In this document: piece after piece, positions 1,132-15,375 of the stretch
Layout: each line of letters begins with the position of its first letter
Position numbering within the stretch: the stretch's first letter is position 1
IMG/VR virus record: IMGVR_UViG_2713896902_000003
Coordinates: 1 to 31,452 of that record
DNA: 31,452 nt
Strand: one strand, 5' to 3'
DNA from: a virus
Lineage: Duplodnaviria > Heunggongvirae > Uroviricota > Caudoviricetes
Notes under the pieces: model-generated
Databases searched by the model: none
What the model saw: only the letters and a program-made list of their open reading frames with translations
What the model was told of the DNA's origin: nothing
Translations under genes and position numbers: made by a program

Positions 1132-1357
1132 CTTCCAGTATCCTCTTTAAAGCCGGGTGATCTGTGGCGATCACTTCAGGCTTGCCTACCATTCCGACAA
1201 AGCGAGCCCGTGGATCCACTCGCCAGTGTCTTCCAACTTTTTTGGGGAGAGGAAATATCATTCCGGCTTTAGCATATTTACTTAATGTACCTGGAGTAGG
1301 GACCGGTTCACTGAATTCCTCTTTTGCCCACTCAGTGAGCAGAATAAGTCTTGCCAT
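1109..1357 (-). CDS. xis: Excisionase (Xis-like), 82 aa
   Basis: Small basic ORF overlapping the integrase start by 23 nt; N-terminal LTEWA motif and IFPLP...GRHWR segment resemble lambda Xis-type winged-helix excisionases (resemblance by memory). Confidence 0.7.
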   Translation of the reverse strand: MARLILLTEWAKEEFSEPVPTPGTLSKYAKAGMIFPLPKKVGRHWRVDPRARFVGMVGKPEVIATDHPALKRILEDGSPSKI

Positions 1358-1421
1358 GAGCGTCGTTCGCTAATCATGGTCGCCGCCACTATAGTTGGTG
1401 GGTGACGACCGGGGTTGAACA

Positions 1422-3755
1422 TTAAAAATCAGCCGGATTCGGGATCAGTTTTTGCCAGATTGCTGAAACTTGTTTTGCTTGGTGACGGGCGTCATCCAGT
1501 GCATTGTGGGGCACACCTTCGAATGGAATAGCCATTCTGACATCAAAGCCAATGGAATTTCCCAGTTCAACAATTGTGCGTACATCGCGATCGTTGCAGT
1601 AACGCCACGGGCAGGGGAGTCCCTGTCGTTCATATGAACGGCGTAAAATCACGTTGTCGAAATTGGCTCCATTTCCCCAGACCTGAACAAAAAATTCGCA
1701 GGAGTTTTCCGCAATAAATTCCCGCAATTGCAGCAGAGCATCATCTAACGGGATTTCATCGGTCAGAATGGCAGATTGCGCTTCGCGTGATTGTTTCAGC
1801 CACCACTTTATTGTTTGTCTGTCGATGATTCCGCCAGCAGTTTCCAGATCGATAGCTTTACTGAATTCAGGCCCCATATCTCCGGTCTGCGGATCGAAAA
1901 ATATTGCGCCTATTGAGATAATCGTGGCGTCGGGATTTTTTCCCATTGTTTCCAGGTCGATCATCAGGTGGCGCTGCATTTTGCTGGTGGATGTATTAAT
2001 TTGATGGTCGTTCACCTTAATTATGGAATTTGCCGTTTCGCCAGTTTTATGAGCGCTATCGTGGTGCTGAGCGCTGCCAGCGTTCTCCTTGTGCAGATGT
2101 TCAGCGCCTTCCATTTCCTCCGGATCTTTTTCCTGAGATTCATCCAGATTTTCTTCATCGAATGTTTCCTGGTATGTTGCGTTGCCCATCACTGGGCCAC
2201 AATCAGGGCAGTTGCCGCCGCCAGTCTGACCGCAGGCGGTGCAGGTTTTTTCTGATTCCTGTCGTGTCTCTGACTCGTTTTGTCGCGCATTTTGACTGTT
2301 TTGTTCAGCTTTTTGCTGGCTCTGGTAAACTGAATCGCAAGTCTGGATCCCATCAACCCATTTCGGATCATTCGGGTCGCTAATCCCTTCAACAAATTCT
2401 CCGCGACAGGCAGCCAGCACTTTGTCTGCATCGACAGAATTTTTGGGCGGAATGTTTTTCCGTGCTTCATGGAGTTCTGCCCGTAGTTCCTGATATTTCG
2501 CATCAACAGAATTTACCTGTGGCTGAGCATCCATCGACTGCGTGTCCTGATGATGTTCAGTTGTATCCGGTTCCGCTGTTTCAGGCGTTGCCTGTTTATC
2601 TTCCAGGATATCTTTTTCCGGTGTATGTCGTGCAGCAGCAAGAGTTTCCTTGCTGGGGTTCTCGTGATCAGTCTCCGTTAAGTGGGCGTTGATATACTCC
2701 TGAAGGCGTCCCGGGTAGAGATAAAGTTCAGGGTGAGCACTTCGGATAAGTGCAAAATTCGCGGCGCGGGAATAATCCAGAATACCCGGGGTTGCGCGAA
2801 GTGCTGCGGACCATTCTTTGAACGGACTTTCTTTCTTCCGGACGACTTCTTTTGCGCGACGATAAACGCTGCCCGGGATTTCATAAATATTAAAATCAAT
2901 CGGAAGTGTGGCCGCTGCAATCTCCACATCCAGTGTATCGAGGGTGTGTACTAAATTCGGATTGCGATCGGTTTTGTTCCCACCGCCAGCATTAGCACCG
3001 GAAGCCGTGCGGGTGATGCGTGAAACACGATTTCCTTTCATCCACTCTTTTGTCAGCAGACCACGATCGGTGTAGTCGGCGCCCAGGTATGCTTCGAAAA
3101 AAGCAGTTATCAGTCCCAGATCTGAATTACCAGGATTAGGGAAAACTTTGTCAGTGTCACGAACCAGTTTGTGGAGATCGCGAATCTCCAGCGGTTTGAG
3201 TTGCGCTGCTTTATTTGAGATGGCCAGCGCTGTAACTGCGGGGAGTTTTTCATCCTGTGTGTTATGTAATGCGCGCAGTTCTTCCCGTGAAACGTGCGTT
3301 ATCGGTTTTTCGCTGCTGTGCTGTGCCAGCCAGCGAACAGGCAGAATCTGACCTGAAATCGGGAGTAGCATATTCTCCTCAATCTCAGTCATATCTTCGC
3401 CGTTGACGTTGGTATTGTCAGTGCTGGCTGGTTTATCCTGAACAGAGGGGGAAGGGGCGATAAATACCATTGTGATGCCATCTTCCCCGCCTTTTTCATA
3501 GCGGTTGCAGAATTCAGTATCAAACACGCCTTCTGGCGGAAGGTCGTCAACAACGGGCAAATTGACGCGGACGGGTTTTTTAAAGTCGTCCTCATCATAA
3601 TTGTTATCATCCATTGCGGTAATACAGCGGGAGACAGCAACAGATAATTTTTTTGCTGTAGTCCAGAAAAAACCGCCTTTGATGCCGAGACGTTTTCTGA
3701 CTTTGTCATTTTTTGCTTCGCAATATAGTGCAAATTCTTCTTTATCAGTGCTCAT
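1422..3755 (-). CDS. Putative exonuclease, 777 aa; C-terminal DnaQ-like (DEDD) 3'-5' exonuclease domain, N-terminal two-thirds uncharacterized
   Basis: Long ORF; C-terminal ~190 aa carry exonuclease motifs (MIDLETMG Exo I-like D-x-E, later HNALDDA with His/Asp); a four-Cys cluster [16 protein letters not shown] lies upstream of the nuclease domain. Sits where lambda exo or Rac recE lies; related prophage proteins are often annotated exodeoxyribonuclease VIII. Confidence 0.6.
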
Positions 3756-3832
3756 TGATAAACCTCATAACCATTTTCAGGGTGAACAAATCCCTGCCAT
3801 TGCTGGCATATAAAAATAAAACCGGATATTAA

Positions 3833-4036
3833 TTACGGCGCTGTTTTAAGTCCTGCCGGGACTTCGTTATTATCCATGCGAATAACTTTATCGACCGGAT
3901 AGCAGTTGCCGGGAATTTTTTGCTCTGCTGCGGCAGCCATGCATTCTTTCATTGAGCCGTAAATGTCAATAACCAGGTCAACAGGTTCGCCGGTATTAAG
4001 AAAAACTGTCAGAACGAGTGCAAATGCTGCATTCAT
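3833..4036 (-). CDS. Small hypothetical protein, 67 aa, hydrophobic N-terminus (possibly DUF1482-like)
   Basis: ORF from track; start overlaps the stop of the upstream gene by 4 nt (translational coupling); hydrophobic N-terminal stretch AFALVLTVFL. Family name is a guess. Confidence 0.5.
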   Translation of the reverse strand: MNAAFALVLTVFLNTGEPVDLVIDIYGSMKECMAAAAEQKIPGNCYPVDKVIRMDNNEVPAGLKTAP

Positions 4037-4221
4037 TGCCAGTATCCTTTTTGCATCAGACGTAAACGGGCCATCATTGAGGCAATGCGTATCTCATTTA
4101 ATGATTCAGGCCTGTGCTTTATCTGGTTAATGGCATCCTCAATAAAAGTTTTATCACCAGTGATAACGCCAATTTCAAAACGAGTTTCAGGCGTAGTGGA
4201 ATTGAGTAATAACATTTCCAT
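4033..4221 (-). CDS. Kil-like host cell-division inhibitor candidate, 62 aa
   Basis: Small ORF in the leftward early operon at the position of kil/kilR; segment FEIGVITGDKTFIEDAINQIK resembles the lambda Kil motif as I recall it. Low confidence, memory-based. Confidence 0.35.
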   Translation of the reverse strand: MEMLLLNSTTPETRFEIGVITGDKTFIEDAINQIKHRPESLNEIRIASMMARLRLMQKGYWQ

Positions 4222-4237
4222 TATCGCGTCCTCAACA

Positions 4238-4380
4238 GTGAATTTTGTGATGTGGTGCCTTCAGGTGACGTTAACCAGTTAACAATTAACGCCGGATACA
4301 GAGAATCCACCCGTAACACTGTTTTTAGCTTTAACTGTTCCGCGTGTGCTGAGCCGCATTCACCGCATCACAAAATTCAC
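4238..4380. repeat. 20-bp inverted repeat pair (GTGAATTTTGTGATGTGGTG at 4238-4257; CACCGCATCACAAAATTCAC at 4361-4380) flanking a 103-bp spacer
   Basis: Read directly: the arms are reverse complements with one mismatch; located immediately upstream (in the transcription direction) of the kil-like start codon. Confidence 0.7.
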
Positions 4381-4788
4381 TTTAAAAAGGGCGGACATCA
4401 GCCGGACTTCAAGAAAAAACTGATGCCGCCAAAGGCTCCGTCGTTAACACCCGACATGGATATGTTGTGGCGGGGTTGTCACTTAAGCGTATGGTCAGCC
4501 TGACAACCCGGTGTCCTCAACGGGGAAGGAGTAGCCCCGCCATACTTACCGCCGCGCCATTTCGCGGATTACCACAACCGGAAGCGCACGGTCGACGAAA
4601 ATTTAACGACAGACCATTTATGAACTAACAGCCTCGTCGTGCGCTTTCGCGTTATGCCCTGACTTTTCAGGGAAAATTAACCAGTGGTAAACTGGTGCTG
4701 CCGGATGCTCACCCGTGTCCGGCGCATGCCCTCCACCTCCCCCGTGGAGAAATCCTTAATTACCAACCTTAGCTTCGTTGGTTAGCTA

Positions 4789-5007
4789 TTAACGCGGGTA
4801 TGTAATCATTCTGGCGATACTTAATGCCACTGCTTTTTCCAGATTGGTAATATCTTTTTCCAGAGCAGACAGATTTTCGGCCTGCTTAGCCCTGGCTTCA
4901 TTGGCCCATTTTAGGTCTTGCGCTGCCTTAATTTTCTGGCACATCCACTCATAAAGTTCATCATCGGTATAGTCTGGCGCGATGATGACGGGTTCTGGTT
5001 TTTGCAT
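4789..5007 (-). CDS. Hypothetical protein, 72 aa; first gene of the leftward early (PL-like) operon
   Basis: ORF from track, about 190 nt downstream of the OL-like operators; no arginine-rich N-like motif, so not called an N antiterminator. Confidence 0.5.
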   Translation of the reverse strand: MQKPEPVIIAPDYTDDELYEWMCQKIKAAQDLKWANEARAKQAENLSALEKDITNLEKAVALSIARMITYPR

Positions 5008-5194
5008 ACTGATTCCTCGCAGTGCTGTTTCCCCTTAACGCCGGGGTGGCGGAACAAAAACCTGCTGCATAGTTAAAGTTGAACCCCGCCGTCATGTTCA
5101 TATGCCTCGGGCTGGCTACTTAACCCCTGACCACTGCTTGGTAACTCGAAGTATTGCCCGGCGTTCTGTGGGGCGGGGTGGGTTGGTATGAAAT

Positions 5195-5245
5195 AAAGAA
5201 TACCCACGGGTATCTAAAAAGTAAATACCCATGGGTAACTTTTTG
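5195..5245 (-). promoter_or_regulatory. OL-like operator pair (TACCCACGGGTA 5201-5212; TACCCATGGGTA 5226-5237) overlapping a candidate leftward PL promoter
   Basis: Two 12-bp palindromes of form TACCC-N2-GGGTA, 25 bp centre to centre, just downstream of the repressor gene 3' end; on the reverse strand TTACCC and TAGATA hexamers with a 16-nt spacer overlap them. Confidence 0.55.
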
Positions 5246-5278
5246 GGTGTCTTAACTGGTGACTGGTTGTTTGGTGAG

Positions 5279-5698
5279 TTATGATGCGTTTTGTGTTTTC
5301 TTTTTACGGATTTCTTCGTAGATCATATTGTAATACTGTTTTTTCTCTTCAAGAGTTTTTAGTAAGTTATCCGCTTCACTTTCTGGCAGTTCGTCTAAGA
5401 GATCTAAAAAAATACGTTGTCGTGGCGTTAGAACCCTTGTTTCATAATTGGAGGCTGCGTTCGTTGATGATGAAACGATACCATCCATCCATCCTCGGGG
5501 TAACCCAAAGGACTCTTCGATAATCTCCACCATATCATCAGCGATCCGTTTTTTTCCTTTTTTCCCCTCTGGATACAACATTCTTGATACATAAGAAGGC
5601 TCGCGACCGATCTTTCTGGCCACGTTAACCGCTTTACCATCGCATTTCTCATCACGAATTTTGATGAGTTGCTGTCGTCTAAATTCATATTTGTCCAT
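5279..5698 (-). CDS. Prophage repressor, DicA/RacR-like (HTH, no LexA-type peptidase domain), 139 aa
   Basis: Divergent from a Cro-like gene with operator palindromes on both sides; N-terminal HTH-like segment (AVNVARKIGREPSYVSRML); C-terminal LTPRQRIFLDLLDELPESEADNLL resembles the DicA C-terminus as recalled; too short for an S24 autopeptidase domain. Confidence 0.65.
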   Translation of the reverse strand: MDKYEFRRQQLIKIRDEKCDGKAVNVARKIGREPSYVSRMLYPEGKKGKKRIADDMVEIIEESFGLPRGWMDGIVSSSTNAASNYETRVLTPRQRIFLDLLDELPESEADNLLKTLEEKKQYYNMIYEEIRKKKTQNAS

Positions 5699-5733
5699 AG
5701 GTAAATAATAGATGCGATTACCGCAAGGTAAAC

Positions 5734-5774
5734 AACCCGTGGGTATTGACTTTTGTTTACCTATGGGTATTCTT
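5734..5774. promoter_or_regulatory. OR-like operator pair (AACCCGTGGGTAT 5734-5746; TACCTATGGGTA 5758-5769) with candidate rightward PR promoter (TTGACT 5746-5751, TATTCT 5768-5773)
   Basis: Same TACCC/GGGTA half-sites as the OL pair, in the 101-bp gap between repressor and cro-like genes; -35 and -10 hexamers with 16-nt spacing overlap the operators about 27 nt upstream of the cro-like ATG. Confidence 0.55.
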
Positions 5775-5799
5775 TTGCCGTGTTTACTAAGGAGTAGCT

Positions 5800-6081
5800 A
5801 TGGAAGAATTAAGAATGTTTCTCAATTCTCTTTCGTCAGATGAACAGCGTATGTTTGCATGTGAGTGTAGTACTAGCATCGGTTATCTAAGAAAGGCATT
5901 GAGTAAAGGTCAAGTGTTAGGGGCATCGTTATGTGTCCTTATTGAGCGAGCCAGTAATGGTGAAGTTACACGTCAGCAACTAAGGCCTTTTGATTGGATG
6001 AATATTTGGCCCGAGCTGGAAGACACCAAAACGTTAACACAACCACTTTCTAGGAGCTTGATTCATGAAAATCAAGCATGA
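5800..6081 (+). CDS. Cro/YdaS-like HTH transcriptional regulator, 93 aa
   Basis: Small ORF divergent from the repressor; RBS GGAG upstream; HTH-like segment FACECSTSIGYLRKALSKGQ; followed by a YdaT-like gene as in Rac-type prophages. Confidence 0.6.
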   Translation: MEELRMFLNSLSSDEQRMFACECSTSIGYLRKALSKGQVLGASLCVLIERASNGEVTRQQLRPFDWMNIWPELEDTKTLTQPLSRSLIHENQA

Positions 6082-6490
6082 GCACATCCGCATGGCGATG
6101 AATGCCTGGGCGCGTCCTGATGGCGAAAAAGTTCCGGCAGCTGGAATAACCCGGGCTTATTTTGAGTTGGGTATGACGTTTCCTGAACTGTATGACGACA
6201 GCCATCCGGAAGCCCTGGCTCGCAATACCCAGAAAATTTTCCGCTGGGTAGAGAAAGACACCCCTGATGCTGTTGAAAAAATTCAGGCGCTGTTACCAGC
6301 GATCGAAAAGGCAATGCCACCTCTGCTGGTGGCCCGAATGCGCAGCCACAGTTCAGCCTGGTTTCGGGAGCTGGTAGAGACGCGGGAACGACTGGTGAGA
6401 GACGCTGATGATTTTGTCGCAGTGGCGATCGCAGGTTTCAACCAGATGAATCGTGGTGGCCCGGCAGGAAATGCCGTGGCGGTACATTGA
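6065..6490 (+). CDS. YdaT-like protein, 141 aa
   Basis: Overlaps the upstream cro-like gene; N-terminus MKIKHEHI matches my recollection of E. coli Rac YdaT; the YdaS-YdaT pairing is consistent. Confidence 0.55.
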   Translation: MKIKHEHIRMAMNAWARPDGEKVPAAGITRAYFELGMTFPELYDDSHPEALARNTQKIFRWVEKDTPDAVEKIQALLPAIEKAMPPLLVARMRSHSSAWFRELVETRERLVRDADDFVAVAIAGFNQMNRGGPAGNAVAVH

Positions 6491-6561
6491 CTGACAATAT
6501 TCATACCGGATCGCTTCCGGCAACTCGTGAGTAAAAAGATTCGGTATCAGAAGAGGTGAGT

Positions 6562-7653
6562 ATGGCTAACGCCTGGCTCAGATTATGGCATGACATGCCA
6601 AATGACCCTAAGTGGCGAACAATTTCAAGGGTGTCAGGACAGCCAATCGCAACGGTGATGGCGGTGTATATCCACCTTCTGGTTAGCGCGTCACGAAATG
6701 TCACGACATGTCACGGTGTGTCACTACGTGGTCACATTGATGTCACGACGGAAGATTTAGCAAGTGCACTTGATGTAACGGAAGAGGTAATTGATTCAAT
6801 TTTGCAGGCAATGCAGGGGCGGGTGCTTGATGGAGATTTAATCACTGGATGGGAAAAACGCCAAGTACTGAAAGAGGACAACGGCAATATTTCGCAAACC
6901 GCAAAATCTCCGGCAGAGCGCAAGAGGGCGCAGAGAGAGAGGGAAAGAAAGCGGGAACAAAATGGCGATTGTCACGGAGCGTCACGAAATGTCACGCACA
7001 TGTCACGACGAGTCACGACAGATAAAGATACAGATAAAGATACAGATCAAGAAGATCAAAACACTATGGTCCATGGCGTAAAAAACGCCACGAACCAGGC
7101 AGGGGATGTTCAGACCGTCAATCCTGGTCAGCCAGCAGGCACGACACCGGAAGCCGATTCAGCGTATGCGCTGAAAGCCGATTCGGGCGCTGTGCAGCAT
7201 GCGATGACCGCAAGGCCGGAACAATCACACCAACTGCAGCAACCTGAAGCCGATTCCGCCATTCAGCGGGAAGCCGATCGGGTAGTCCCGGAAAACACCG
7301 GGCAGCCTGTGGGACGAGTGGATTATCCGGATGTGTTCGAACAGGTCTGGCTGGAATACCCGTTGCGTGCCGGGGCAAACCCGAAGAAATCCGCTTTCAG
7401 TGCCTGGAAGGCCAGATTACGCGAGGGGGTGCCACCAGAGGTCATGCTGGATGGAGTGAGGCGTTACGCAAGATACCTGGCGGCTACCGGGAAAACAGGA
7501 ACGGAGTTTGTTCAGCGAGCGACGACGTTTTTCGGCCCTGACCGGAATTTTGAAAACCCCTGGTTGCTCCCGGTAAGCGGCACGAACAACCAGCGTTGTG
7601 TGAATCATATTTCTGAACCGGACACTGAAATCCCGCCGGGATTCAGGGGGTGA
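6562..7653 (+). CDS. Replication initiation protein candidate (YdaU/DUF1376-like N-terminus), about 363 aa, with origin-like iterons inside the gene
   Basis: Track ORF 6556..7653; ATG at 6562 preferred (RBS AGAGGTGAG upstream). N-terminal WLRLWHDMPNDPKW motif is typical of DUF1376 replication-associated phage proteins as recalled; lies where lambda O lies; contains iteron clusters. Confidence 0.6.
   Translation: MANAWLRLWHDMPNDPKWRTISRVSGQPIATVMAVYIHLLVSASRNVTTCHGVSLRGHIDVTTEDLASALDVTEEVIDSILQAMQGRVLDGDLITGWEKRQVLKEDNGNISQTAKSPAERKRAQRERERKREQNGDCHGASRNVTHMSRRVTTDKDTDKDTDQEDQNTMVHGVKNATNQAGDVQTVNPGQPAGTTPEADSAYALKADSGAVQHAMTARPEQSHQLQQPEADSAIQREADRVVPENTGQPVGRVDYPDVFEQVWLEYPLRAGANPKKSAFSAWKARLREGVPPEVMLDGVRRYARYLAATGKTGTEFVQRATTFFGPDRNFENPWLLPVSGTNNQRCVNHISEPDTEIPPGFRG
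6690..6750 (+). repeat. Iteron cluster 1: six GTCAC(G/T)-containing direct repeats at 10-11 bp spacing
   Basis: Read directly: gtcacgaaatgtcacgacatgtcacggtgtgtcactacgtggtcacattgatgtcacgacg, inside the replication gene. Confidence 0.7.
6971..7044 (+). repeat. Iteron cluster 2 (five GTCACG repeats at 10-bp spacing, 6971-7017) followed by AT-rich tandem repeat gataaagataca x2 (7021-7044)
   Basis: Read directly: gtcacggagcgtcacgaaatgtcacgcacatgtcacgacgagtcacgaca then gataaagatacagataaagataca; the arrangement resembles lambda ori (iterons plus AT-rich region inside gene O). Confidence 0.65.
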
Positions 7654-7674
7654 GAATTGCTTCTGTGGAGTCTG

Positions 7675-7788
7675 ATGGAGGATTTATGGCGAGAATTTTT
7701 ATGTCAGAGGTTCGCAGAGGAACTGAAGAATCGTATTGTTGAGCTTGTGCGTAAAAATGAGTGTATACCAATTTTTCAATTGGTATGA
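7675..7788 (+). CDS. Possible small ORF, 37 aa (MEDLWREFLCQRFAEELKNRIVELVRKNECIPIFQLV)
   Basis: Below the track's 60-aa cutoff; ATG 7675 is 4 nt after GGAG and 22 nt after the replication-gene stop; translation reads like an amphipathic helix. Speculative. Confidence 0.2.
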   Translation: MEDLWREFLCQRFAEELKNRIVELVRKNECIPIFQLV

Positions 7789-7914
7789 CGCAACATGCAG
7801 CAGGCGTATAAAGTTATGCAAAGAGAGAACAGACGGTGCAGTTAATTATCAGGAGTTGTGTAATTGTAGCAAAAAGTAAAAGATATTGTGGATTCTGGAA
7901 ATGAGGGAGGGGCG

Positions 7915-8115
7915 ATGTGCGAAATTGTGGTGTTAATTAAAATAGCGTTAACGATTGGTTGTATTGCTGCTGTTGTCTTTGGATTGATTGCATGTGTCAC
8001 TAGAAAAAATCCTTTATGTTTCATTAATTCATTGTCTGTAATGAAGTTTTTGGTGGCACTAATAGCCTACATATGGTTTCTTTGTTTTCTTTTACCACCA
8101 TGGGAGTGTTCATGA
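7915..8115 (+). CDS. Small membrane protein, 66 aa, two predicted transmembrane helices
   Basis: Track ORF 7888..8115; ATG at 7915 preferred because of the strong RBS GAGGGAGGGG 3 nt upstream; two hydrophobic stretches (IVVLIKIALTIGCIAAVVFGLIA and FLVALIAYIWFLCFLL); in an AT-rich moron. Confidence 0.5.
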   Translation: MCEIVVLIKIALTIGCIAAVVFGLIACVTRKNPLCFINSLSVMKFLVALIAYIWFLCFLLPPWECS

Positions 8116-8198
8116 TAAGGGGCATTAGTTATCAGATATTGCATAAGGGACTGTTGCTGAAGAGCTTGTGAGCTTTCCTTAATATTGCCGGTATTTTG

Positions 8199-8204
8199 TA
8201 TAAT
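8199..8204 (+). promoter_or_regulatory. Candidate -10 element (TATAAT preceded by TG) for the 164-aa moron gene
   Basis: tttgTATAATaatg read directly, about 38 nt upstream of ATG 8242; no convincing -35 identified. Confidence 0.35.
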
Positions 8205-8241
8205 AATGAAATGGGTCTGTGGGGTGGAAGGATGAAAGTTA

Positions 8242-8736
8242 ATGAGCGCTTTTACCAAAGAGCAACTAATCGAGTACGCAAGGGCTTACATTGAGCATGA
8301 TACATTGTTGAAAACGAGGTTTGGTAAAAGTTACAAGACGTCTGCATATATAGAATTGGTTCGTATTGCGTTGATTTCGCTTGAAACAGGGACGCCTTAT
8401 ATGAATCAATTTACCAGAAAAACATTTACGCTGGATGCGCAACCAGATGCTGATAGAGAGTCTGATGCACATGAACCTTCTTATGCATTTCAATTGCCAT
8501 CAGTAGCTCCGGAGATGGCTGAAGATGCTATTAAATGTATTCGCAGCATCGCTCCCCACCTTAATGAAGGTACTCCCTCTTCGACATCTGACAGGCAGGT
8601 CCACGAGCTAGCTATATGGGTTAAGCGTCTAGCCTATTCCTTAAAAGGTGTCAATAAATCAAGCAAGTTACCAGATAAGGCGATGGACTATCTGGAGGTT
8701 AACGGGATGATAAATAAGGAGAATATCTTGCGGTGA
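8242..8736 (+). CDS. Hypothetical protein, 164 aa (moron cargo, function unknown)
   Basis: Clean ORF in a visibly AT-rich segment between the replication and DUF968 genes; own promoter-like -10; no recognizable motif. Confidence 0.6.
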   Translation: MSAFTKEQLIEYARAYIEHDTLLKTRFGKSYKTSAYIELVRIALISLETGTPYMNQFTRKTFTLDAQPDADRESDAHEPSYAFQLPSVAPEMAEDAIKCIRSIAPHLNEGTPSSTSDRQVHELAIWVKRLAYSLKGVNKSSKLPDKAMDYLEVNGMINKENILR

Positions 8737-9315
8737 GTAAAATTTATGCAATTGAGTAATCGTGTTTTTCTGAGTACTCATGTCGGGGTTTACTGTCAAG
8801 AATAAAAACAATTTGCAGGCAAAAGAAACTTGAGTAAAATTGATACAGGATGCCTGAGGTTGTCAGCCCGGGCATAAACGTCAAGAGGCAGACAGAGAAA
8901 AACTTCGTTGTATTTGCGACCAGTCAATCGAAGTTTGCTCATGCCAGACATATTTACTCTGAGCTCCTTCCATACTGAACGGCAGGGAAAGTGCAGATTA
9001 TGAAGTGTAAACAGTGTTAATACTCTGAGTGTCATTTGTATCGCGGTCACTGTGACAGAATCAGGGAAATCTCTGTCAAGCACGAACCAGAATCGGTCCG
9101 TCGGGAATTGCTTCATGGTTTGCGAATCTGAGTGAGGAGTAAGAAAAGTCGGTGGGGGTATGCTTCTCCACCTCTTTTTTTCTGGTGCATCTGGCATCCT
9201 CTGGGCATCCACACTTAATTTTCTTAAGTAGATTTTGTATTTTCTACGCATTTTGGTTTACAATTTGCGCGCCAACCTGAACAATTGGTACCTGCTGCGT
9301 CAATAGAGAAAATAA

Positions 9316-9594
9316 ATGACGCACAATACTAAACCTCGCAATTCTGATAATATCGCCGTCTTTGCCAACAGGCACGGGCGGCATTCACATGCATTCAAAT
9401 CTGACTGGTTCCAGCATGACCCATGCACTGAGGAACAGGCCGAATGGCTGATTCAGAATTACCGCAGACGTGGGTACGAGTTTCAGAAAGACCTCAGTCT
9501 TGATTTCCGACACTGGATAATTTCCGTCAGGCTTCCTTATTCCGAACGCCCACCGCGTCCGTCCCGCACATTCCAGCAACGGATCTGGAGGTAA
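9316..9594 (+). CDS. Hypothetical protein, 92 aa
   Basis: ORF from track; stop TAA is 1 nt before the GTG start of the downstream DUF968-like gene, which has its RBS GGAGG inside this ORF (translational coupling). Confidence 0.5.
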   Translation: MTHNTKPRNSDNIAVFANRHGRHSHAFKSDWFQHDPCTEEQAEWLIQNYRRRGYEFQKDLSLDFRHWIISVRLPYSERPPRPSRTFQQRIWR

Positions 9595-9595
9595 C

Positions 9596-10654
9596 GTGCG
9601 GGTATTACTTAGACCTGTTCTGGTACCGGAACTTGGGCTGGTGGTCCTTAAGCCAGGCCGTGAATCCATGCAGGTATTTCATAATGCCCGGGTGCTGGTG
9701 GAGCCGGAACCGAAAAGCATGCGCGGCCTGCCGTCCGGAGTCGTCCCCGCTGTTCGTCAGCCGCTGGTGGAAGATAAATCATTATTGCCATTTTTCAGCG
9801 ATGAGCGGGTTATTCGTGCTGCTGGTGGCGCTGGCGCATTGTCTGACTGGCTCCTGCGTCATGTTAAATCCTGCCAGTGGCCTCATGGTGATTACCATCA
9901 CAGCGAAACCGTCATACATCGTTATGGTACCGGCGCCATGGTGTTGTGCTGGCACTGCGACAACCAGCTGCGTGACCAGACCTCCGAATCACTTGAGCAA
10001 CTTGCTCGTCAAAATCTGGCAGCCTGGATGATTGACGTCATCCGCCACGCAATAAGCGGTACACAGGAACGGGAATTATCGCTGGCTGAATTATCCTGGT
10101 GGGCAGTCCGCAATCAGGTGGCGGACGCACTACCTGAGGCGGTATCGCGTCGTTCGCTGGGATTACCGGTGGAAAAAATCCGTTCAGTATACCGCGAAAG
10201 CGACATCATACCGGGAGAGCAGACAGCCACCAGCATACTGAAGCTGCGCACAAAAAATCTTGCGCGGTTGCCTCACGCCCACCAGCAACAAAAACCACCA
10301 CAGGAAAAGACGGTAGTAAGCATCGCCGTTGATCCGGAGTCTCCGGCTCAGTATCTCCAGCGCCAGAAACCACAACGGGAAGAGATGCCCGTATACACGC
10401 GCTGGGTAAAAACACAGAAATGCATGACGTGTGGCAATCAGGCAGATGATCCGCATCACATCATTGGTCATGGACTGGGAGGGATGGGAACAAAGGCTGA
10501 CGATTTGTTTGTTATTCCGCTGTGCCGTAGATGCCATAACGAACTGCACGCCGGGGTAAAAGATTTTGAAGAAAAACACGGCAGCCAGCTGTTGTTGCTG
10601 ATTCGTTTTTTAATGCACGCGAGAAATTCGGGTGTTCTGAAGTGGAAAGCATGA
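9596..10654 (+). CDS. DUF968-like prophage protein with C-terminal HNH-like zinc-binding nuclease motif, 352 aa
   Basis: Size and position (between replication and rusA/Q) match the DUF968/YdfU-type proteins of lambdoid prophages; C-terminus has CMTCGNQADDPHHIIGHGLGG...CRRCHNELH, i.e. paired Cys motifs with conserved His typical of the HNH fold. Confidence 0.65.
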   Translation: MRVLLRPVLVPELGLVVLKPGRESMQVFHNARVLVEPEPKSMRGLPSGVVPAVRQPLVEDKSLLPFFSDERVIRAAGGAGALSDWLLRHVKSCQWPHGDYHHSETVIHRYGTGAMVLCWHCDNQLRDQTSESLEQLARQNLAAWMIDVIRHAISGTQERELSLAELSWWAVRNQVADALPEAVSRRSLGLPVEKIRSVYRESDIIPGEQTATSILKLRTKNLARLPHAHQQQKPPQEKTVVSIAVDPESPAQYLQRQKPQREEMPVYTRWVKTQKCMTCGNQADDPHHIIGHGLGGMGTKADDLFVIPLCRRCHNELHAGVKDFEEKHGSQLLLLIRFLMHARNSGVLKWKA

Positions 10655-11032
10655 ATGACTGAACGCATAGAATTTGTTTTGCCTTATCCGCCTACGGTGA
10701 ACACCTACTGGCGCCGCCGTGGTGGCACATATTTTGTATCAAAATCCGGAGAACGTTATCGCCGTGATGTGGCGCTGATTGTTCGTCAGCAACGGCTGAA
10801 ATTAAACCTGTCCGGAAGGCTGGCAATCAGGATTATTGCAGAGCCACCGGATAAGCGCCGCCGCGACCTGGACAATATCCTGAAGGCACCACTGGATGCA
10901 CTGACACATGCAGGACTGCTTATCGACGATGAGCAGTTTGACGAAATCAATATAGTGCGCGGTCAGCTCGTTCCTGGTGGTCGGCTGGGTGTGAAGATTT
11001 ACGAAATTACAGGTGATAACGATGGCGCGTGA
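10655..11032 (+). CDS. rusA: Crossover junction endodeoxyribonuclease RusA (Holliday junction resolvase), 125 aa
   Basis: Matches RusA by recall: N-terminal [16 protein letters not shown] and the catalytic-region motif [27 protein letters not shown]; usual position just upstream of Q. Confidence 0.9.
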
Positions 11033-11408
11033 TATTCAGCAGGTTATGGAGCGGTGGGGGGCATGGGCTGCAAACAATCATGAAGATGTGTCCTGGGCAT
11101 CAATCGCTGCTGGTTTTAAAGGATTAATTCCGTCGAAAGTGAAATCACGCCCTCAGTGTTCTGATGATGATGCAATGATAATTTGTGGCTGTATGGCCCG
11201 GTTGAACAAGAAAAATCAGGATTTGCACGATTTGTTGGTGGATTATTACATAGGTGGAATGACTTTTATGGGGCTGGCACGAAAGCATGGGTGTTCGGAT
11301 ACCTGTATTGGCAAGCGCCTGCAGAAAGCTGAAGGGGTTATTGATGGCATGTTGATGATGCTTGATATCCGACTGGAGATGGACAGATACGTAGAACGAA
11401 TCATGTAG
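11022..11408 (+). CDS. Late-gene antitermination protein Q-like, about 128 aa
   Basis: Track ORF 11013..11408; ATG at 11022 preferred. Located immediately upstream of a promoter plus intrinsic terminator (PR'/tR' arrangement) and downstream of rusA; Cys/His-containing middle region ([12 protein letters not shown]...HGCSDTC). Confidence 0.7.
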
Positions 11409-11412
11409 GAGC

Positions 11413-11442
11413 TTGACCAGACACATTGTCCGGGGCTATATT
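11413..11442 (+). promoter_or_regulatory. Candidate late promoter PR' (TTGACC 11413-11418; TATATT 11437-11442)
   Basis: Near-consensus -35 and -10 hexamers with an 18-nt spacer, 5 nt after the Q stop codon and about 60 nt upstream of an intrinsic terminator. Confidence 0.5.
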
Positions 11443-11504
11443 CCTCACGCGCCAGCAAAATCTGGCGTCGGGATTAGGAACCCCGGATAGAGACCGCGAC
11501 AGAC

Positions 11505-11526
11505 ACACGCCGCGAGCGTGTTTTTT
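11505..11526 (+). terminator. Intrinsic terminator tR' candidate (ACACGC-CGCGA-GCGTGT plus T6)
   Basis: 6-bp GC-rich stem, 5-nt loop, followed by TTTTTTATT; read directly. Confidence 0.6.
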
Positions 11527-11689
11527 ATTGTCGTATGCACGCGCACATCTGAATTATGGTGGGGCGTATGGGGGAGCTGAAAAGCTCGCCGGTTGGTTTC
11601 CCGGTAGTTCCTAACCCTGTACGTCTCACCACCCGATGATTAGGAACCTGACGGTGGTGATGGTTTAGAAACCACCAGAGGGCGTCATT

Positions 11690-12277
11690 ATGACAACTCA
11701 AATTTCTGTTGAAACTCTCTCCCCGATCACCCATAACCAGATTCCTGTTATTACCACCGAACTTTTGGCGCAGTTGTACGGTGCTGAAGTTAAGAACATT
11801 CAAAATAACTACGCCAGAAATGCTGAGCGCTTTATTGAAGGAAAGCATTTTTTCAAAGTGGCTGGCGATGCCCTGAAAAATTTGCGGGTAGCTTTAAACT
11901 ACTCACAAAATTTGCAACCATCTTTAAGAGGGTTACAAATTTCCCCGAAAGCCCGCTCGCTCATACTCTGGACAGAACGCGGCGCAGCCCGCCACGCAAA
12001 AATGCTCGAAACCGATCAGGCGTGGGAAGTATTCGAAAAACTGGAAGACTGTTATTTCAGCCAGAAACAGCCACTAGCAACACAAAACTCACCCACCGAA
12101 AATGATGGATGCGCATTACTGATCCACTTCGATAAACACGGTCAGGTCGACTTTACGGAAAAAGTACCCGCCGATGCGATGGTATGCACTCTGGAACGGT
12201 TCAAATTTTATCTGGAACAACGCGGCTGGATCGTTGCCCGTAAAGAGCAACTGGTGGAACGATTGATGAGGCTTTAA
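11690..12277 (+). CDS. ORF6N-like (phage antirepressor N-terminal DNA-binding domain) protein, 195 aa
   Basis: First ORF downstream of PR'/tR'; RBS AGAGGG; N-terminal region (IPVITTELLAQLYGAEVKNIQNNYARNAERFIEGKHFF...ILWTERGAARHAKML) resembles ORF6N/Bro-N type domains as recalled. Confidence 0.5.
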   Translation: MTTQISVETLSPITHNQIPVITTELLAQLYGAEVKNIQNNYARNAERFIEGKHFFKVAGDALKNLRVALNYSQNLQPSLRGLQISPKARSLILWTERGAARHAKMLETDQAWEVFEKLEDCYFSQKQPLATQNSPTENDGCALLIHFDKHGQVDFTEKVPADAMVCTLERFKFYLEQRGWIVARKEQLVERLMRL

Positions 12278-12355
12278 AAATTTTCCCCGAACGCTTTACG
12301 ATCGTAAAAAGTTGAATATCCTGTTAAGAGTGGTTACTACGCCACACAGCTTAAA

Positions 12356-12377
12356 CCCGCCGATGAGCGGGTTTTTT
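12356..12377 (+). terminator. Intrinsic terminator after the ORF6N-like gene (CCCGC-CGATGA-GCGGG plus T6)
   Basis: Read directly, about 80 nt after the stop codon. Confidence 0.6.
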
Positions 12378-12683
12378 ATGCCCGAAAAGTGGCACAGGAC
12401 GTTAAACGCGCTGGTGGTTGCGAATACTGGTCTTCAGCTTGCTGGCTTTTTTGGCCAGGAGTTATTGGTGTTACATGTCTGACAGTTGTCTGTAACTGGT
12501 TCCGGGATTTTTACACCTGTACAGCGGAAGGGACATGAACCTTTGTTGCTGGCAGGGTTAAGCTAACCAAATCTGAAAGTGGTGTGACTGTCATTGCCGG
12601 AGAGAGATTCATGAGTCTACGCTAATCAATGCGGAGTAATTTTTCTTCGTAACGAGTATCCGACTGTTGTTTTGTCTTTATTG

Positions 12684-12708
12684 CCAGCCCATAAGGGTTG
12701 GTTTTTTT
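12684..12708 (+). terminator. Intrinsic terminator candidate (CCAGCCC-ATAA-GGGTTGG plus T7)
   Basis: 7-bp stem with one G-U pair, then TTTTTTT; read directly. Confidence 0.45.
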
Positions 12709-13084
12709 ACAGAAAATTGCCTGTAAGACAGGTGGTTCAGTAATAGCTTGGATATTGGGATATATAAAAATTGTTATATGTATCCGGGATGTTGTGCGTG
12801 CATGTGGAATACAACCGTTACTGCCTTGTTATTATTTTGAAAACTGGTCGCTGTGTATTCTTGTTCTTTCCGGATAATGTGATGTAGATCTATTACATTA
12901 CCAGGCAGCGTATTTTAACCTTTCAGAGATTCTGAGGTGTTCCCCAGTGCGGGGGTGACGGATGTGGTTGTTTAGCGGGAAGTCACAGTATGCTGTTTTG
13001 GGACTGACAGCAATATACTTCGGGAGGCACCCGACGCTTCGGATCATATCAATAATAATTATATCTTCTTTTGACCATCCTTTT

Positions 13085-13108
13085 ACCGCCTGACAAGGCG
13101 GTTTTTTG
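13085..13108 (+). terminator. Intrinsic terminator candidate (ACCGCC-TGACAA-GGCGGT plus T6), nested in a longer inverted repeat CGCCTGACAA/TTGTCAGGCG (13087-13134)
   Basis: Read directly; the outer 10-bp repeat is also followed by TTTTT (13135-13139). Confidence 0.5.
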
Positions 13109-13226
13109 TTTCTGTAAACAGCATTTGTCAGGCGTTTTTCGATATATCAAAGTATCGCTATGTAGTTTAAATGCAGAGCTGAAGAGTATTGCTGGTGCTG
13201 GCATCAAGATGAGGAAAGTTTTAGTG

Positions 13227-13253
13227 AAAAAAAACGGCTCATAAAGAGCCGTT
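13227..13253 (-). terminator. Reverse-strand intrinsic terminator module 1a (stem AACGGCTC/GAGCCGTT, U-tract from plus-strand A8)
   Basis: Plus strand reads A8-hairpin-TTAAAAA; on the minus strand the hairpin is followed by T8. Confidence 0.5.
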
Positions 13254-13377
13254 AAAAATGTGATAGTTATGCATCTATAGAGTAATTCAGTATTTTCCTG
13301 TTTTTATTGTGCAATTCCTTGATGTGGATCATGTTTGTTGTAATGACCTCAAGAGTTGAACAAACTTTATTTAGTCT

Positions 13378-13404
13378 AAAAAAAATACCCTCCAGCGGAG
13401 GGTA
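13378..13404 (-). terminator. Reverse-strand intrinsic terminator module 2a (stem TACCCTCC/GGAGGGTA, loop AGC)
   Basis: 8-bp GC-rich stem with A8 immediately 5' on the plus strand, i.e. T8 3' of the hairpin on the minus strand. Confidence 0.55.
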
Positions 13405-13526
13405 TAAAATGTGTTAACTAAGCATTCATTATGTTGTAAGTGTCATATGTGATTTTCATTTTATGAGTTTTGACGTGACTTTTTGTGATGTGATTCTTAT
13501 TTTTGAATAATAAAGTTACGTAAAGA

Positions 13527-13557
13527 AATAAAAAAGCGACCCATTTGAAGAGTCGCT
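13527..13557 (-). terminator. Reverse-strand intrinsic terminator module 3a (stem AGCGAC/GTCGCT)
   Basis: Hairpin preceded on the plus strand by AATAAAAAA (U-tract on minus strand). Confidence 0.45.
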
Positions 13558-13671
13558 TGTGAATAAAGGCGGTATGTGAGTAGTAACGTACGGAGTGAAT
13601 TTTACTGCACCAGATGTGTGGTAGATATTGATTCTGGTCAATTCATCTGTAATGAGTGGTTGTTTAACGGC

Positions 13672-13698
13672 AAAAAAATAGCTCCCCGGAAGAGGAGC
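13672..13698 (-). terminator. Reverse-strand intrinsic terminator module 4a (stem GCTCC/GGAGC)
   Basis: Hairpin preceded on the plus strand by AAAAAAATA. Confidence 0.4.
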
Positions 13699-14189
13699 CC
13701 GTGAAAATTCATGGTGAGAAGAACAAGTCTTTACAAAAGACTCCGACAGACAAAGAACCATAAATATGATATGGGGGGGATAGTGGTTCTGTGGTGATTT
13801 ATATCAAAATTTTGATGTTTTCTTGAATGCTTGATGGCTAATTATAATAGTACATATTAAATGTTTATTATTATTTTCATATTGGAATAAGTAGCATCCT
13901 TGATATATCGCCCTGTAACTAGGCGAATGCCGGAAGCAGAACCGGCTCACCAAATACATACGGGCGTCATCACCACCAGCTAACAGCACAACCATAAATG
14001 AAAGTCATAGTTATTGGGGGATCCAGACCTTTCGGTTAACTGGTTTTTCTACAGAAAATTACCAGTCTGGCTGGTGGTTCCGGGAACCGCATCAATTATG
14101 GGGTTTGAATGTAGCGGAAAGTATATTATTGATGTTGCCGGGACTGACAGCAAGGTGAATGAAAAATGGACGTTGGAAAGCTTCTGTGC

Positions 14190-14217
14190 AAAAAAACGGC
14201 ACTGAGAAAGTGCCGTT
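14190..14217 (-). terminator. Reverse-strand intrinsic terminator module 1b (stem AACGGCACT/AGTGCCGTT)
   Basis: Counterpart of 1a with compensatory stem changes; A7 on the plus-strand 5' side. Confidence 0.5.
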
Positions 14218-14338
14218 AAAAAGTAACATGTATGATATATAAGGTCTTGTTAGTATTTTCTGTATTGCGATTCGTTTTCTTTGATTTCAGTCAACATTGA
14301 TGCGCAGTAATTAGTAATGGATTGAAATTTATGCAGAC

Positions 14339-14365
14339 AAAAAAAGTACCCTCCTGACGAGGGTA
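14339..14365 (-). terminator. Reverse-strand intrinsic terminator module 2b (stem GTACCCTC/GAGGGTAC, loop CTGAC)
   Basis: Counterpart of 2a; stem register shifted and loop changed but pairing kept. Confidence 0.55.
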
Positions 14366-14507
14366 CAGGTACGAAAACATGTGAAGAAGTATTTATTGCT
14401 AGTGTTATGTAGAGCTCTGAATCCTACGCGTTCTGATCTTACAAATTTCATATTTTTTTTATGTGATGCAGTTCCTGTTTTTATTTTTTTGTCGGTGATG
14501 GTCTGAT

Positions 14508-14534
14508 AAAAAGCGACCTTTTTACAGGTCGCTT
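14508..14534 (-). terminator. Reverse-strand intrinsic terminator module 3b (stem AAGCGACC/GGTCGCTT)
   Basis: Counterpart of 3a with compensatory change (gaccc...gagtc versus gacct...aggtc). Confidence 0.45.
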
Positions 14535-14647
14535 GTGAACGAAGGAAGTATATGAGTAGTAGTGTACGTACTCTATTTTACTGCTCCAGATGTGTGATGG
14601 ATGTTGATGCAGGTCAACTTTCTGTAATAAATAGTTTTTTAACAAAT

Positions 14648-14673
14648 AAAAAATGGCTCCCGAAAGAGGAGCC
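14648..14673 (-). terminator. Reverse-strand intrinsic terminator module 4b (stem GGCTCC/GGAGCC)
   Basis: Counterpart of 4a; A-rich tract on the plus-strand 5' side. Confidence 0.4.
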
Positions 14674-14942
14674 AATAATGGAAAAGCCTGGAATCTCATA
14701 TATGTAATTGTATACATCTGTATTTTATTTATCGTGTAATAGTTTGTAGTGATTTATATCAATGTTTTGATAGTATTTCTGAATGTCTGGATGCTAATTA
14801 TAATAATGCATATCGCAGGCTTATTATTATTTACGCATTAAAATAAATAGCATCCTTGATATATCATTCTGACTCTGTTGTCTGGTAGTGAGGAATTAAA
14901 ACGGGGAGGAATATACAGATATTCCTGCCTGATATTGTCAAT

Positions 14943-14964
14943 GGGCCGCTGGTGGCCCTTTTTT
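14943..14964 (+). terminator. Intrinsic terminator 18 nt upstream of the holin RBS (GGGCC-GCTGGT-GGCCC plus T6)
   Basis: Read directly: atgggccgctggtggcccttttttatttacaggagaaaaagtATG. Confidence 0.6.
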
Positions 14965-14982
14965 ATTTACAGGAGAAAAAGT

Positions 14983-15375
14983 ATGTCTGAACCCTTATCC
15001 GGTTCCGGCACGGCTGCGGCGCTGGGGGGAGCGACGGTCTTCGGGCTGTTTACCGGGACGGATTTCGGGATTGTGTTTGGTGCATTTGCGGGGGCATTGT
15101 TTGTGGCAACGGTGCCACAGGCACTTTCAGCCTGGCGTGTGGCGGCGCATTTTCTGGTGTCGTTTATCGTCGGCGTACTGGGAGCGCGCGTGCTGTCAGC
15201 ATGGGTTATATCAAAAACAGGGTATGACGCCACGTCTGTGGATGCGCTGTGTGCAGTACTGGTATCAGTGGTGTCGGTGAAGATTCTCTCGTTCATCCAC
15301 CAGCAGGATATTGCATCGCTGGTGTCCGGCCTGTTTTCCCGCCTGCGGGGCGGAGGAGGCGGTAATGTTAAATAA
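14983..15375 (+). CDS. Putative holin, 130 aa, multiple transmembrane segments
   Basis: Track ORF 14878..15375; ATG 14983 preferred (RBS AGGAG, 9-nt spacer). Gly/Ala-rich hydrophobic segments and charged C-terminus; first gene of the lysis cassette upstream of the endolysin. Confidence 0.6.
   Translation: MSEPLSGSGTAAALGGATVFGLFTGTDFGIVFGAFAGALFVATVPQALSAWRVAAHFLVSFIVGVLGARVLSAWVISKTGYDATSVDALCAVLVSVVSVKILSFIHQQDIASLVSGLFSRLRGGGGGNVK

Follow-up and report, generated by a model that had tools for sequence, protein, structure and literature searches.

The DNA analysed here (IMG/VR record IMGVR_UViG_2713896902_000003, positions 1 to 31,452; hereafter the window) is a lambdoid prophage whose nearest relatives are found in Escherichia albertii. 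Its genes run in the order DUF968, RusA, Q (PF06530, 11013-11408), isrK/C4-type RNAs (11436-11636) and an ORF6N protein (11690-12277). The ORF6N gene is followed by 2.7 kb without called genes and then by a holin, a second holin and an endolysin gene. This gap contains a tandem repeat of two units, each with four modules (a to d) and an A/T-rich box. Here we describe the repeat and argue that its modules are candidate small RNA (sRNA) genes on the minus strand.

We observed seven families of direct repeats (D1, D2, D5, D7-D9 and D11) that are spaced 955-977 nt apart. A pairwise alignment of ~13190-13909 with ~14150-14865 has a mean column identity of 74%, and a search with hidden Markov models (HMMs) of the modules in nhmmer found the internal order d-c-b-a-box twice in the window. 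An earlier note on this DNA had claimed two diverged tandem copies, and the spacing of the repeat families and the alignment identity confirm them. Furthermore, the similarity is not restricted to low-complexity A/T sequence, as local alignments gave z = 5-42 for orthologous modules and z of ~0 for non-orthologous ones. Modules a to d have no similarity to each other (z ~0), and a reading of the unit as four repeats of 150 nt was thus ruled out for lack of internal paralogy.

The earlier note also proposed a partial third copy at 12693-13010, which we did not recover. Only 40 nt (12699-12738 compared to 14041-14080, 83% identity; repeat D3) and 14 nt (13000-13013, identical to 14140-14153; repeat D12) match, both of them to the spacer between the copies, and no module HMM has a match at 12693-13010. 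Instead, the two matches mark the heads of two longer units, and the supposed third copy is the head of a longer first unit (unit A). The long units begin at 12703 and 14051, in both cases after a plus-strand terminator with a T-run and ACAG(A/G)A(A/G)AA behind it. At 14023..14060, the boundary between unit A and the second unit (unit B) was read from the sequence as an imperfect plus-strand terminator-like hairpin followed by a T-run and ACAGAAAATT (repeat D3); the terminator scan missed this hairpin, whose stem is bulged. Unit B is without most of 12739-13190 of unit A. The T-run and ACAG(A/G)A(A/G)AA junction occurs a third time at 14965, where it serves the holin gene as its ribosome-binding site.

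The terminator scan detected 15 terminator-like sites in 12000-15300, compared to 2.3 expected. On the minus strand there are eight intrinsic terminators, four per unit and ~150 nt apart. The E. albertii relatives of the locus were gathered through prophages with exact matches to the ORF6N and holin proteins on its two sides. Eight variants of the unit, taken from prophages of E. albertii and E. coli, were aligned in minus-strand orientation. The same four terminators are present in every related unit. All eight terminators of the window, and those in all units of the relatives, consist of a G+C-rich hairpin with a tail of at least 5-6 U residues, which is weaker in b2. When the 32 hairpins of the eight variants are read as minus-strand RNA, they contain only three mismatches but 26 G.U pairs, which are possible only in RNA from this strand, and the minus-strand hairpin is the more stable one in 22 of the 32 cases. 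Since the T-runs follow the stems on the minus strand only and the G.U pairs can form only in minus-strand RNA, we conclude that the hairpins are minus-strand-specific terminators. The count of four hairpins per copy in the earlier note is thus retained, whereas their strand is revised.

In the first copy, four candidate sRNA genes can be delimited on the minus strand. Module d1 (13225..13332) has the box ATGATCCACATCAA at 13319-13332, the hexamer GAAAAT at 13292-13297 and a terminator at 13253-13233 with a U-tail. Module c1 (13377..13498) has a half-site box, AAGAATCACATCAC, at 13485-13498, TAAAAT at 13458-13463 and a terminator at 13405-13385. Module b1 (13528..13641) combines the box TTGACCAGAATCAA (13628-13641) with TAAAAT (13599-13604), a terminator at 13558-13534 and a C/U-rich motif complementary to ribosome-binding sites (anti-RBS motif). 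Module a1 (13672..13807) has the box TTGATATAAATCAC at 13794-13807, TATCAT at 13766-13771 and a terminator at 13699-13680. The second copy repeats this arrangement on the same strand. Here, module d2 (14188..14294) has TTGACTGAAATCAA at 14281-14294, GAAAAT at 14255-14260 and a terminator at 14217-14195, and module c2 (14339..14476) the half-site box AGGAACTGCATCAC at 14463-14476, TAAGAT at 14436-14441 and a terminator at 14366-14346. Module b2 (14507..14617) has TTGACCTGCATCAA at 14604-14617, TAAAAT at 14575-14580 and the terminator with the weaker U-tail at 14533-14512, and module a2 (14646..14762) has TTGATATAAATCAC at 14749-14762, TAAAAT at 14722-14727 and a terminator at 14674-14654. The RNA body of a2 is unrelated to that of a1.

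All four modules, dissimilar as they are, share a common plan on the minus strand: a palindrome of the TTGAT-N4-ATCAA type, 20-23 nt, a hexamer of the form nAnnAT, 55-90 nt, and the terminator with its U-tail. In modules a, b and d, the palindrome is a 14-bp dyad with 0-2 mismatches to TTGATNNNNATCAA in all eight variants. It takes the form TTGATATAAATCA(C/T) in a, TTGA(C/T)-N4-ATCAA in b and TTGA(C/T)-N4-(A/G)TCAA in d. In b and d, variation is free in the central four bases (in b: CAGA, CTGC, CTAC, ATGA, TAAA, ATAA and CAAA) but not in the half-sites, a pattern that is the expected footprint of a dimeric DNA-binding protein. Module c contains the half-site ATCAC only, at 21-22 nt from TA(A/G)(A/G)AT. 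The hexamer lies 65-100 nt upstream of the terminator ends and keeps A2, A5 and T6; it reads TAAAAT, TAGAAT, TATAAT, TACAAT or TATCAT in a, b and c and GAAAAT, GAGTAT or AAAGAT in d.

We compared the frequency of these elements to shuffled sequence. Six of the nine dyads with at most one mismatch in the window fall into 13190-14870, where 0.19 are expected. On its minus strand, the repeat holds six composites of dyad, spacer and hexamer, compared to 0.03 expected, and on its plus strand none. The divergent unit of one E. albertii prophage (L071) came to light only when the model was already in place; as a blind test, it fits the model. A scan for sigma-70 consensus promoters gave fewer matches than chance, and there is no -35 hexamer at 17 nt from any of the conserved module hexamers; we therefore read the dyads as activator boxes. 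One further composite occurs in the window, at 30833-30846 on the minus strand, where it lies antisense within a late structural gene and is most likely a chance match.

The sequence TTGAT-N4-ATCAA is the consensus of the FNR binding site, and most FNR-activated promoters (class II) carry the site at -41.5 +/- 4 (PMC3688515). In the E. coli fnrS promoter (K-12 record), the box TTGAGCGAAGTCAA is followed by 22 nt, CAATAT, 7 nt and the transcription start site, so that the box is centred at -42.5. If transcription of the modules starts ~7 nt after the hexamer, their dyads are centred at -39.5 to -42.5. With such a start, the dyad-to-hexamer geometry would match both the placement of the FNR consensus and the fnrS promoter, and each unit therefore looks like a set of four class II FNR-type promoters that would each drive a short terminated RNA. 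We give roughly even odds that the regulator is FNR specifically. Alternatively, the minus-strand sRNA genes might be real and respond to CRP, to another protein of the CRP/FNR family or to a dimeric protein encoded by the phage. The sequence TGA-N6-TCA is common to CRP and FNR sites, one half of the module a box is of the GTGA type (CRP-like), and module c has a GTGAT half only. However, both halves of the b and d boxes have the FNR-discriminating form TTGA...TCAA in nearly all variants, and the prophage's own operators are of a different type, TACC...GGTA. We thus consider a regulator outside FNR unlikely. The CI/Cro operators were also ruled out as the source of the dyads, as the repeats of the immunity region are of this TACC...GGTA type.

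The conservation of the terminators could also be explained by an array that only terminates or insulates, against antisense transcription or against read-in from the lysis side, or by leftovers of repeated moron insertions; in these cases, there would be no functional RNAs and the boxes and -10 hexamers would be incidental. The terminators are indeed the most conserved and least ambiguous feature of the locus, while the RNA bodies diverge to 50-70% identity between alleles and match no known sRNA family in Rfam. Nevertheless, four to eight serial terminators at a pitch of 150 nt go far beyond what insulation needs. Moreover, a pure terminator array does not require half-sites and a hexamer with A2 and T6 that stay at a fixed distance upstream of the terminators in eight diverged variants. 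This explanation appears improbable to us.

We found no conserved open reading frame (ORF) on either strand across the eight variants. On the minus strand, ORFs of 81 and 78 aa were rejected as genes, as they run through the terminators and are dissimilar. Type I toxin-antitoxin-like pairs or small-protein genes are suggested by a plus-strand ORF of 42/51 aa in module b, which has a good Shine-Dalgarno sequence in both window copies, and by a hydrophobic ORF of 30 aa at 14749-14841. Yet the module b ORF differs between the window copies by frameshifts and mostly non-synonymous changes, and it is broken in five of the seven other variants by an ATA start, an ATG-TAG or an early stop; it was thus rejected as a gene. 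The hydrophobic ORF has only 10 aa in copy 1 and in E. coli C8. Since these ORFs are not conserved, this explanation is largely refuted and we regard it as highly improbable. Strong Shine-Dalgarno sequences lie in the plus-strand hairpin arms of modules a, b and c and are followed by ATG or GTG at 4-12 nt. The resulting plus-strand mini-ORFs (13576-13704, 13701-13763, 14552-14707, 14679-14708 and their counterparts in relatives) encode 1-51 aa and include ATG-TAG start-stop pairs; with neither frame, length nor sequence conserved, they were rejected as genes.

Stretches complementary to a Shine-Dalgarno sequence and start codon are present in the predicted minus-strand RNAs of modules a, b and c. 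Module b has, for instance, CAUAUACUUCCUU, and the terminator arms of modules a and c have CCUCC or CUCCUC. Such complementarity is typical of sRNAs that repress translation. The 10-mer UACUUCCUUU is common to the sRNA FnrS and most b alleles, which may reflect convergence on an anti-RBS sequence.

Upstream of module a, each unit contains an A/T-rich box of ~100 nt, which is the best-conserved segment apart from the terminators. From the direct repeats and the variant alignment, Box 1 was delimited to 13808..13909, with the palindrome ATTATAAT at 13841-13848, and Box 2 to 14763..14865, with ATTATAAT at 14797-14804 and TAGCATCCTTGATATATC at 14848-14865; neither box was assigned to a strand. As the earlier note had reported, ATTATAAT is found in the whole window at these two positions only, and the 18-mer TAGCATCCTTGATATATC closes both copies, ending at 13909 and 14865 (repeat D2). 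Together with the module a dyad, the boxes (13794-13909 and 14749-14865) are bounded by inverted TTGATATA repeats, which read TTGATATAAATC on the minus strand and TTGATATATC on the plus strand. The same two segments also hold an overlapping inverse dyad, ATCAA-N4-TTGAT. The box was rejected as a structured RNA, since only the flanking inverted TTGATATA repeats pair and the z-scores are inconsistent.

The earlier note had seen in ATTATAAT a possible -10 element for either strand. We find that it is not the best promoter candidate for the modules, as each module has its own box and -10 hexamer and unit 1 of the L007-type prophages is without the ATTATAAT block. These E. albertii prophages, which represent a common allele (at least 12 assemblies or contigs), keep all four modules but have no counterpart of 13830-13924 (L007 8165-8169), where unit 1 of the window has its ATTATAAT box and TAGCATCC... 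block; the deletion leaves the dyad and the hexamer of module a intact. In unit 2 of the L048-type prophage, GTTATAAT on the minus strand keeps TATAAT there and gives TATAAC on the plus strand. The ATTATAAT box could be a second minus-strand promoter for a longer a-transcript or a plus-strand promoter for a downstream element. Downstream of the box, a terminated RNA of 150-190 nt is predicted in E. albertii, and a coding sequence of 76 aa is found in E. coli C8.

If the plus strand were the functional one, ATTATAAT would act as the -10 element of RNAs of ~190 nt (end 14023-14050) and ~150 nt (end 14943-14964), or the leader would carry mini-ORFs with their Shine-Dalgarno sequences in the hairpin arms, and the duplication would have expanded a plus-strand promoter or leader element. 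This reading is the nearest to the picture drawn in the earlier note. It agrees with ATTATAAT being a perfect and highly conserved -10 on both strands, with the equally conserved TAGCATCCTTGATAT downstream, with the plus-strand terminators that close each unit, with the position of the box upstream of the 76-aa coding sequence in C8 and with the pairs of Shine-Dalgarno sequence and ATG or GTG in modules a, b and c. However, there is no acceptable -35 hexamer or activator box at the right distance, and the composite pattern is absent from the plus strand. In addition, TATAAT is preserved by the L048 substitution for the minus strand alone, the L007-type prophages have lost Box 1 and the mini-ORFs are not conserved. 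A plus-strand element would be compatible with minus-strand sRNA genes, and it leaves the eight minus-strand terminators unexplained. We thus assign it a low probability.

Several observations weigh against a set of minus-strand, FNR-driven sRNA genes. The hexamer of module d is weak in all its forms, and module c has a half-site only. The box of module a is invariant including its spacer, and a constraint other than FNR may therefore act on it. Palindromes arise easily in A/T-rich DNA, and in the terminator stems conservation prevails over covariation. The transcription start sites are predictions from -10-like hexamers, and the eight variants are related and mosaic, so that they are not independent samples. 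The conserved ATTATAAT box lies outside what a four-gene model explains. Lastly, the Rfam models of AgvB (RF02702), AsxR (RF02703), FnrS (RF01796) and Esr41 have no match in 12200-15000 even at E <= 10, and none reaches its gathering threshold in the window or in the sequences from E. coli C8 (L001), L007 and L048; because none of these models scores, the modules are not members of these families. The repeat has no match to any Rfam family, be it at gathering thresholds or at E <= 10, and a search for tRNA and tmRNA genes gave none.

We next turn to the distribution of the cassette. The segment 12278-14983 is 100% identical in assembly GCA_001514725.1 (L008), and the holin at 14983-15375 (PF16931) has 98-99% identity to E. 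albertii proteins. E. albertii prophages with two units comprise three allele pairs (the window/L008, L007 and L048 types), and one E. albertii prophage, L071, has a single unit. In E. coli, prophages of C8 and five other strains, together with four IMG/VR contigs, have one unit, which is flanked by a Q-like gene (DUF1133) and the lysis genes. The order d-c-b-a-box was recovered with the module HMMs in every relative. BLAST detected the cassette in 6 of 5426 complete E. coli genomes, and E. coli prophages with related holins (L053-L065) are without it. No deposited phage was found to carry it, including the INPHARED collection searched in distant mode. A search of 185,579 GTDB species representatives with one motif gave only chance matches in unrelated taxa, two scans of metagenome contigs with two motifs gave none, and viral contigs gave nothing beyond the four C8-type uncultivated virus genomes.

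When comparing the units among prophages, we find that the alleles of unit 1 and unit 2 are often nearer to alleles of other prophages than to those of their own neighbour. For example, module a of the second window unit is 98% identical to module a of the second L007 unit and only 53% identical to module a of the first window unit. Because of this pattern, we take the duplication to be old, with both copies retained. The modules are mosaic between prophages, and the boxes, hexamers and terminators persist as the RNA bodies diverge. The single unit of L071 (CP117575.1, 3680-4420) is chimeric: its modules d and c are 82-85% identical to unit 1 of L007, and its modules b and a are nearest to unit-2 alleles. 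It thus looks like the product of unequal crossing-over between two copies.

Taken together, the terminators and the promoter-like arrangement make it probable that the modules are minus-strand sRNA genes. We favour, with moderate confidence, the full model in which they form a four-gene candidate cassette that is driven by FNR and duplicated in E. albertii. From the sequence, we infer transcription, FNR dependence, Hfq binding and targets of the modules. The earlier note had proposed an expanded non-coding element of promoter and sRNA genes in the late leader. The minus-strand terminators with their promoter-like arrangement and a PR'-like promoter upstream are in line with this proposal; the strand, the ATTATAAT promoter and the third copy have to be given up.

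According to the model, a cassette of ~0.7 kb with four different sRNA genes would have been tandemly duplicated. Its site would be the 'moron' slot, which has PR'/tR' on one side and the holin gene on the other, and all genes would run antisense to the Q-dependent late transcript. Each gene would have its own promoter without a -35 hexamer, with a dyad 20-23 nt upstream of a -10-like hexamer, a strongly allele-variable RNA body of 55-90 nt and a G+C-rich terminator with a long U-tail, the usual 3' end of Hfq-type RNAs. In the lysogen, PR' transcripts would end at tR'. Once FNR is active (low oxygen, for instance in the gut), host RNA polymerase would transcribe the cassette into up to eight short RNAs. 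Several of these carry C/U-rich stretches against Shine-Dalgarno sequences and start codons and would probably act in trans as translational repressors or sponges. As all RNAs would be perfectly complementary to the late-operon leader, they could furthermore damp leaky late transcription. A bolder and rather speculative extension is an oxygen-sensing RNA battery, in which eight FNR-dependent sRNAs made only at low oxygen from a recombining duplicated cassette would rewire host translation through their anti-RBS seeds and tie the leakiness of the lysis genes to oxygen.

Convergent or antisense short sRNA genes 3' of PR' have been documented in lambdoid prophages (PMC4104026). Tree et al. 2014 (PMC4104026) described the anti-sRNAs AsxR and AgvB (EcOnc01-03) of enterohaemorrhagic E. 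coli, which occupy the same moron site, with the Q-antiterminated PR' on their 5' side and the lysis genes downstream. Like the modules, they are short RNAs with intrinsic terminators, convergent or antisense to the late transcript, with a conserved 3' part and a variable 5' part. However, the modules have no sequence or covariance-model similarity to them (Rfam, E <= 10), and the cassette consists of four unrelated genes, each with an FNR-type box, that are tandemly duplicated and found mainly in E. albertii. FnrS, an sRNA of the E. coli core genome (RF01796), resembles the modules in its FNR dyad, 22-nt spacing, -10 hexamer and box centre at -42.5 (with the module starts as predicted from the hexamers), in its terminator with a U-tail and in a C/U-rich anti-Shine-Dalgarno stretch. 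It differs in being a single-copy core-genome gene of 122 nt, and Rfam detects no FnrS match in the cassette. With location, orientation, size and terminators matching and families differing, the cassette is best seen as a variant of the known moron-site sRNAs of prophages.

PasA/PasC/PasD (bioRxiv 10.64898/2026.05.13.724894) and HnrS (PMC13502914) are likewise sRNAs of prophage late regions that are present in several diverged copies per genome, whose variant seeds are probably non-redundant; for these sRNAs, the copies are reported from separate prophages, explicitly not as products of tandem duplication. In contrast, the copies of the cassette are adjacent within one prophage. Because BLAST finds the cassette in so few E. 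coli genomes, it is not a Pas or HnrS locus. Adjacent paralogous sRNA genes with a shared promoter type and terminator and diverged bodies are known from PrrF1/PrrF2 and OmrA/OmrB. There, single core-genome genes were duplicated, whereas here a four-gene cassette was duplicated in a mobile element. The layout of StxS, the short transcript from PR' to tR' (PMC7547250), is matched by 12295-12709 of the window, which is the upstream neighbour and unit boundary of the cassette; StxS differs from the modules in its plus-strand orientation and in its origin as a late-promoter by-product, and it falls outside the repeated four-module unit. In the literature, we found no description of the cassette or of FNR-driven prophage sRNAs.

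Prophage sRNAs encoded after PR' (AsxR, AgvB, StxS, HnrS and Pas) are emerging as factors of lysogenic conversion, and little is known about their regulation. Where such sRNAs occur in multiple copies, this has so far been explained by the presence of several prophages and not by duplication in situ. The locus described here would add a compact cassette of four unrelated sRNA genes under one promoter logic, a regulatory input from low oxygen, through FNR, to the prophage sRNAs of an emerging enteric pathogen, and direct evidence of the duplication of a cassette, the shuffling of its modules and its collapse by recombination. If the model is true, a prophage may supply its host with eight extra regulators for anaerobic life. 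On the speculative reading as an RNA battery, the cassette would furthermore be a mobile and modular 'sRNA operon-like' unit, in which the bodies diversify and the scaffolds of promoter and terminator stay. The model yields precise predictions of the promoters, starts and ends of eight RNAs. The predicted minus-strand starts are ~13285 (d1), 13451 (c1), 13592 (b1), 13759 (a1), 14248 (d2), 14429 (c2), 14568 (b2) and 14715 (a2), each +/- 3 nt, and the RNAs would end in the U-tails.

The remaining features of the gap place the repeat downstream of a putative late promoter. Near the beginning of the gap, 12295-12378 can be aligned to the region directly after Q in the Stx2 phage Sp5 of the Sakai strain. 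In Sp5, a promoter-like TTTACG-16-TATCAT (L002 2312-2339) is followed by two plus-strand terminators, the second of them ~258 nt downstream, which agrees with the published PR'/StxS transcript (PMC7547250). By homology to this layout, the window would have a PR'-like late promoter on the plus strand at 12295..12322 (TTTACG, 16 nt, TATCCT) and a first plus-strand terminator at 12355-12378. The terminator scan detected a tR'-like plus-strand terminator at 12683..12709, which resembles the StxS terminator GCCAGCC...GGCTGGCTTTTTT of Sp5; the T-run and ACAGAAAATT that follow it are the start of long unit A. Because of the PR'-like promoter, we infer that 12380-14982 is the late-operon leader. A processed sRNA similar to StxS or PasA may arise from 12295-12709 on the plus strand. 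The leader ends at 14943..14982 with the last plus-strand terminator (14943-14958 and a T-run, from the terminator scan) and ACAGGAGAAAAAGT, the ribosome-binding site of the PF16931 holin gene that starts at 14983.

When compared to L007 (6589-9204), the leader (12278-14982) has 77-84% identity, although the adjoining ORF6N protein is 100% identical and the flanking DNA 89-93%. The leader is either a recombination hot spot or fast-evolving. Two plus-strand segments within it resemble known RNA families below threshold. The first, 12715-12805, has a sub-threshold Rfam match of 25 bits to STnc490. The second, 12901-13111, resembles STnc100 (RF02076)/PasD with 21.7 bits and E = 0.067, below the gathering threshold of 47 bits; it closes with a plus-strand terminator at 13085-13102, has a conserved counterpart in E. 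coli C8 (L001 3330-3570) and runs convergently to module d1.

Lastly, we note some features outside the leader. On the plus strand between Q and the ORF6N/antirepressor-like gene (11436-11636), isrK, the C4 antisense RNA and the c4-a1b1 target elements all score above the Rfam gathering thresholds; this is an RNA switch of the P1/Gifsy-1 type just 5' of the late promoter region. The Rfam scan of the window did not report sok. Related E. albertii prophages have hok/sok loci (Rfam sok with ~119-120 bits, Pfam HOK_GEF) in their early-right regions, at 2753-2928 of L007 and 544-717 of L048.

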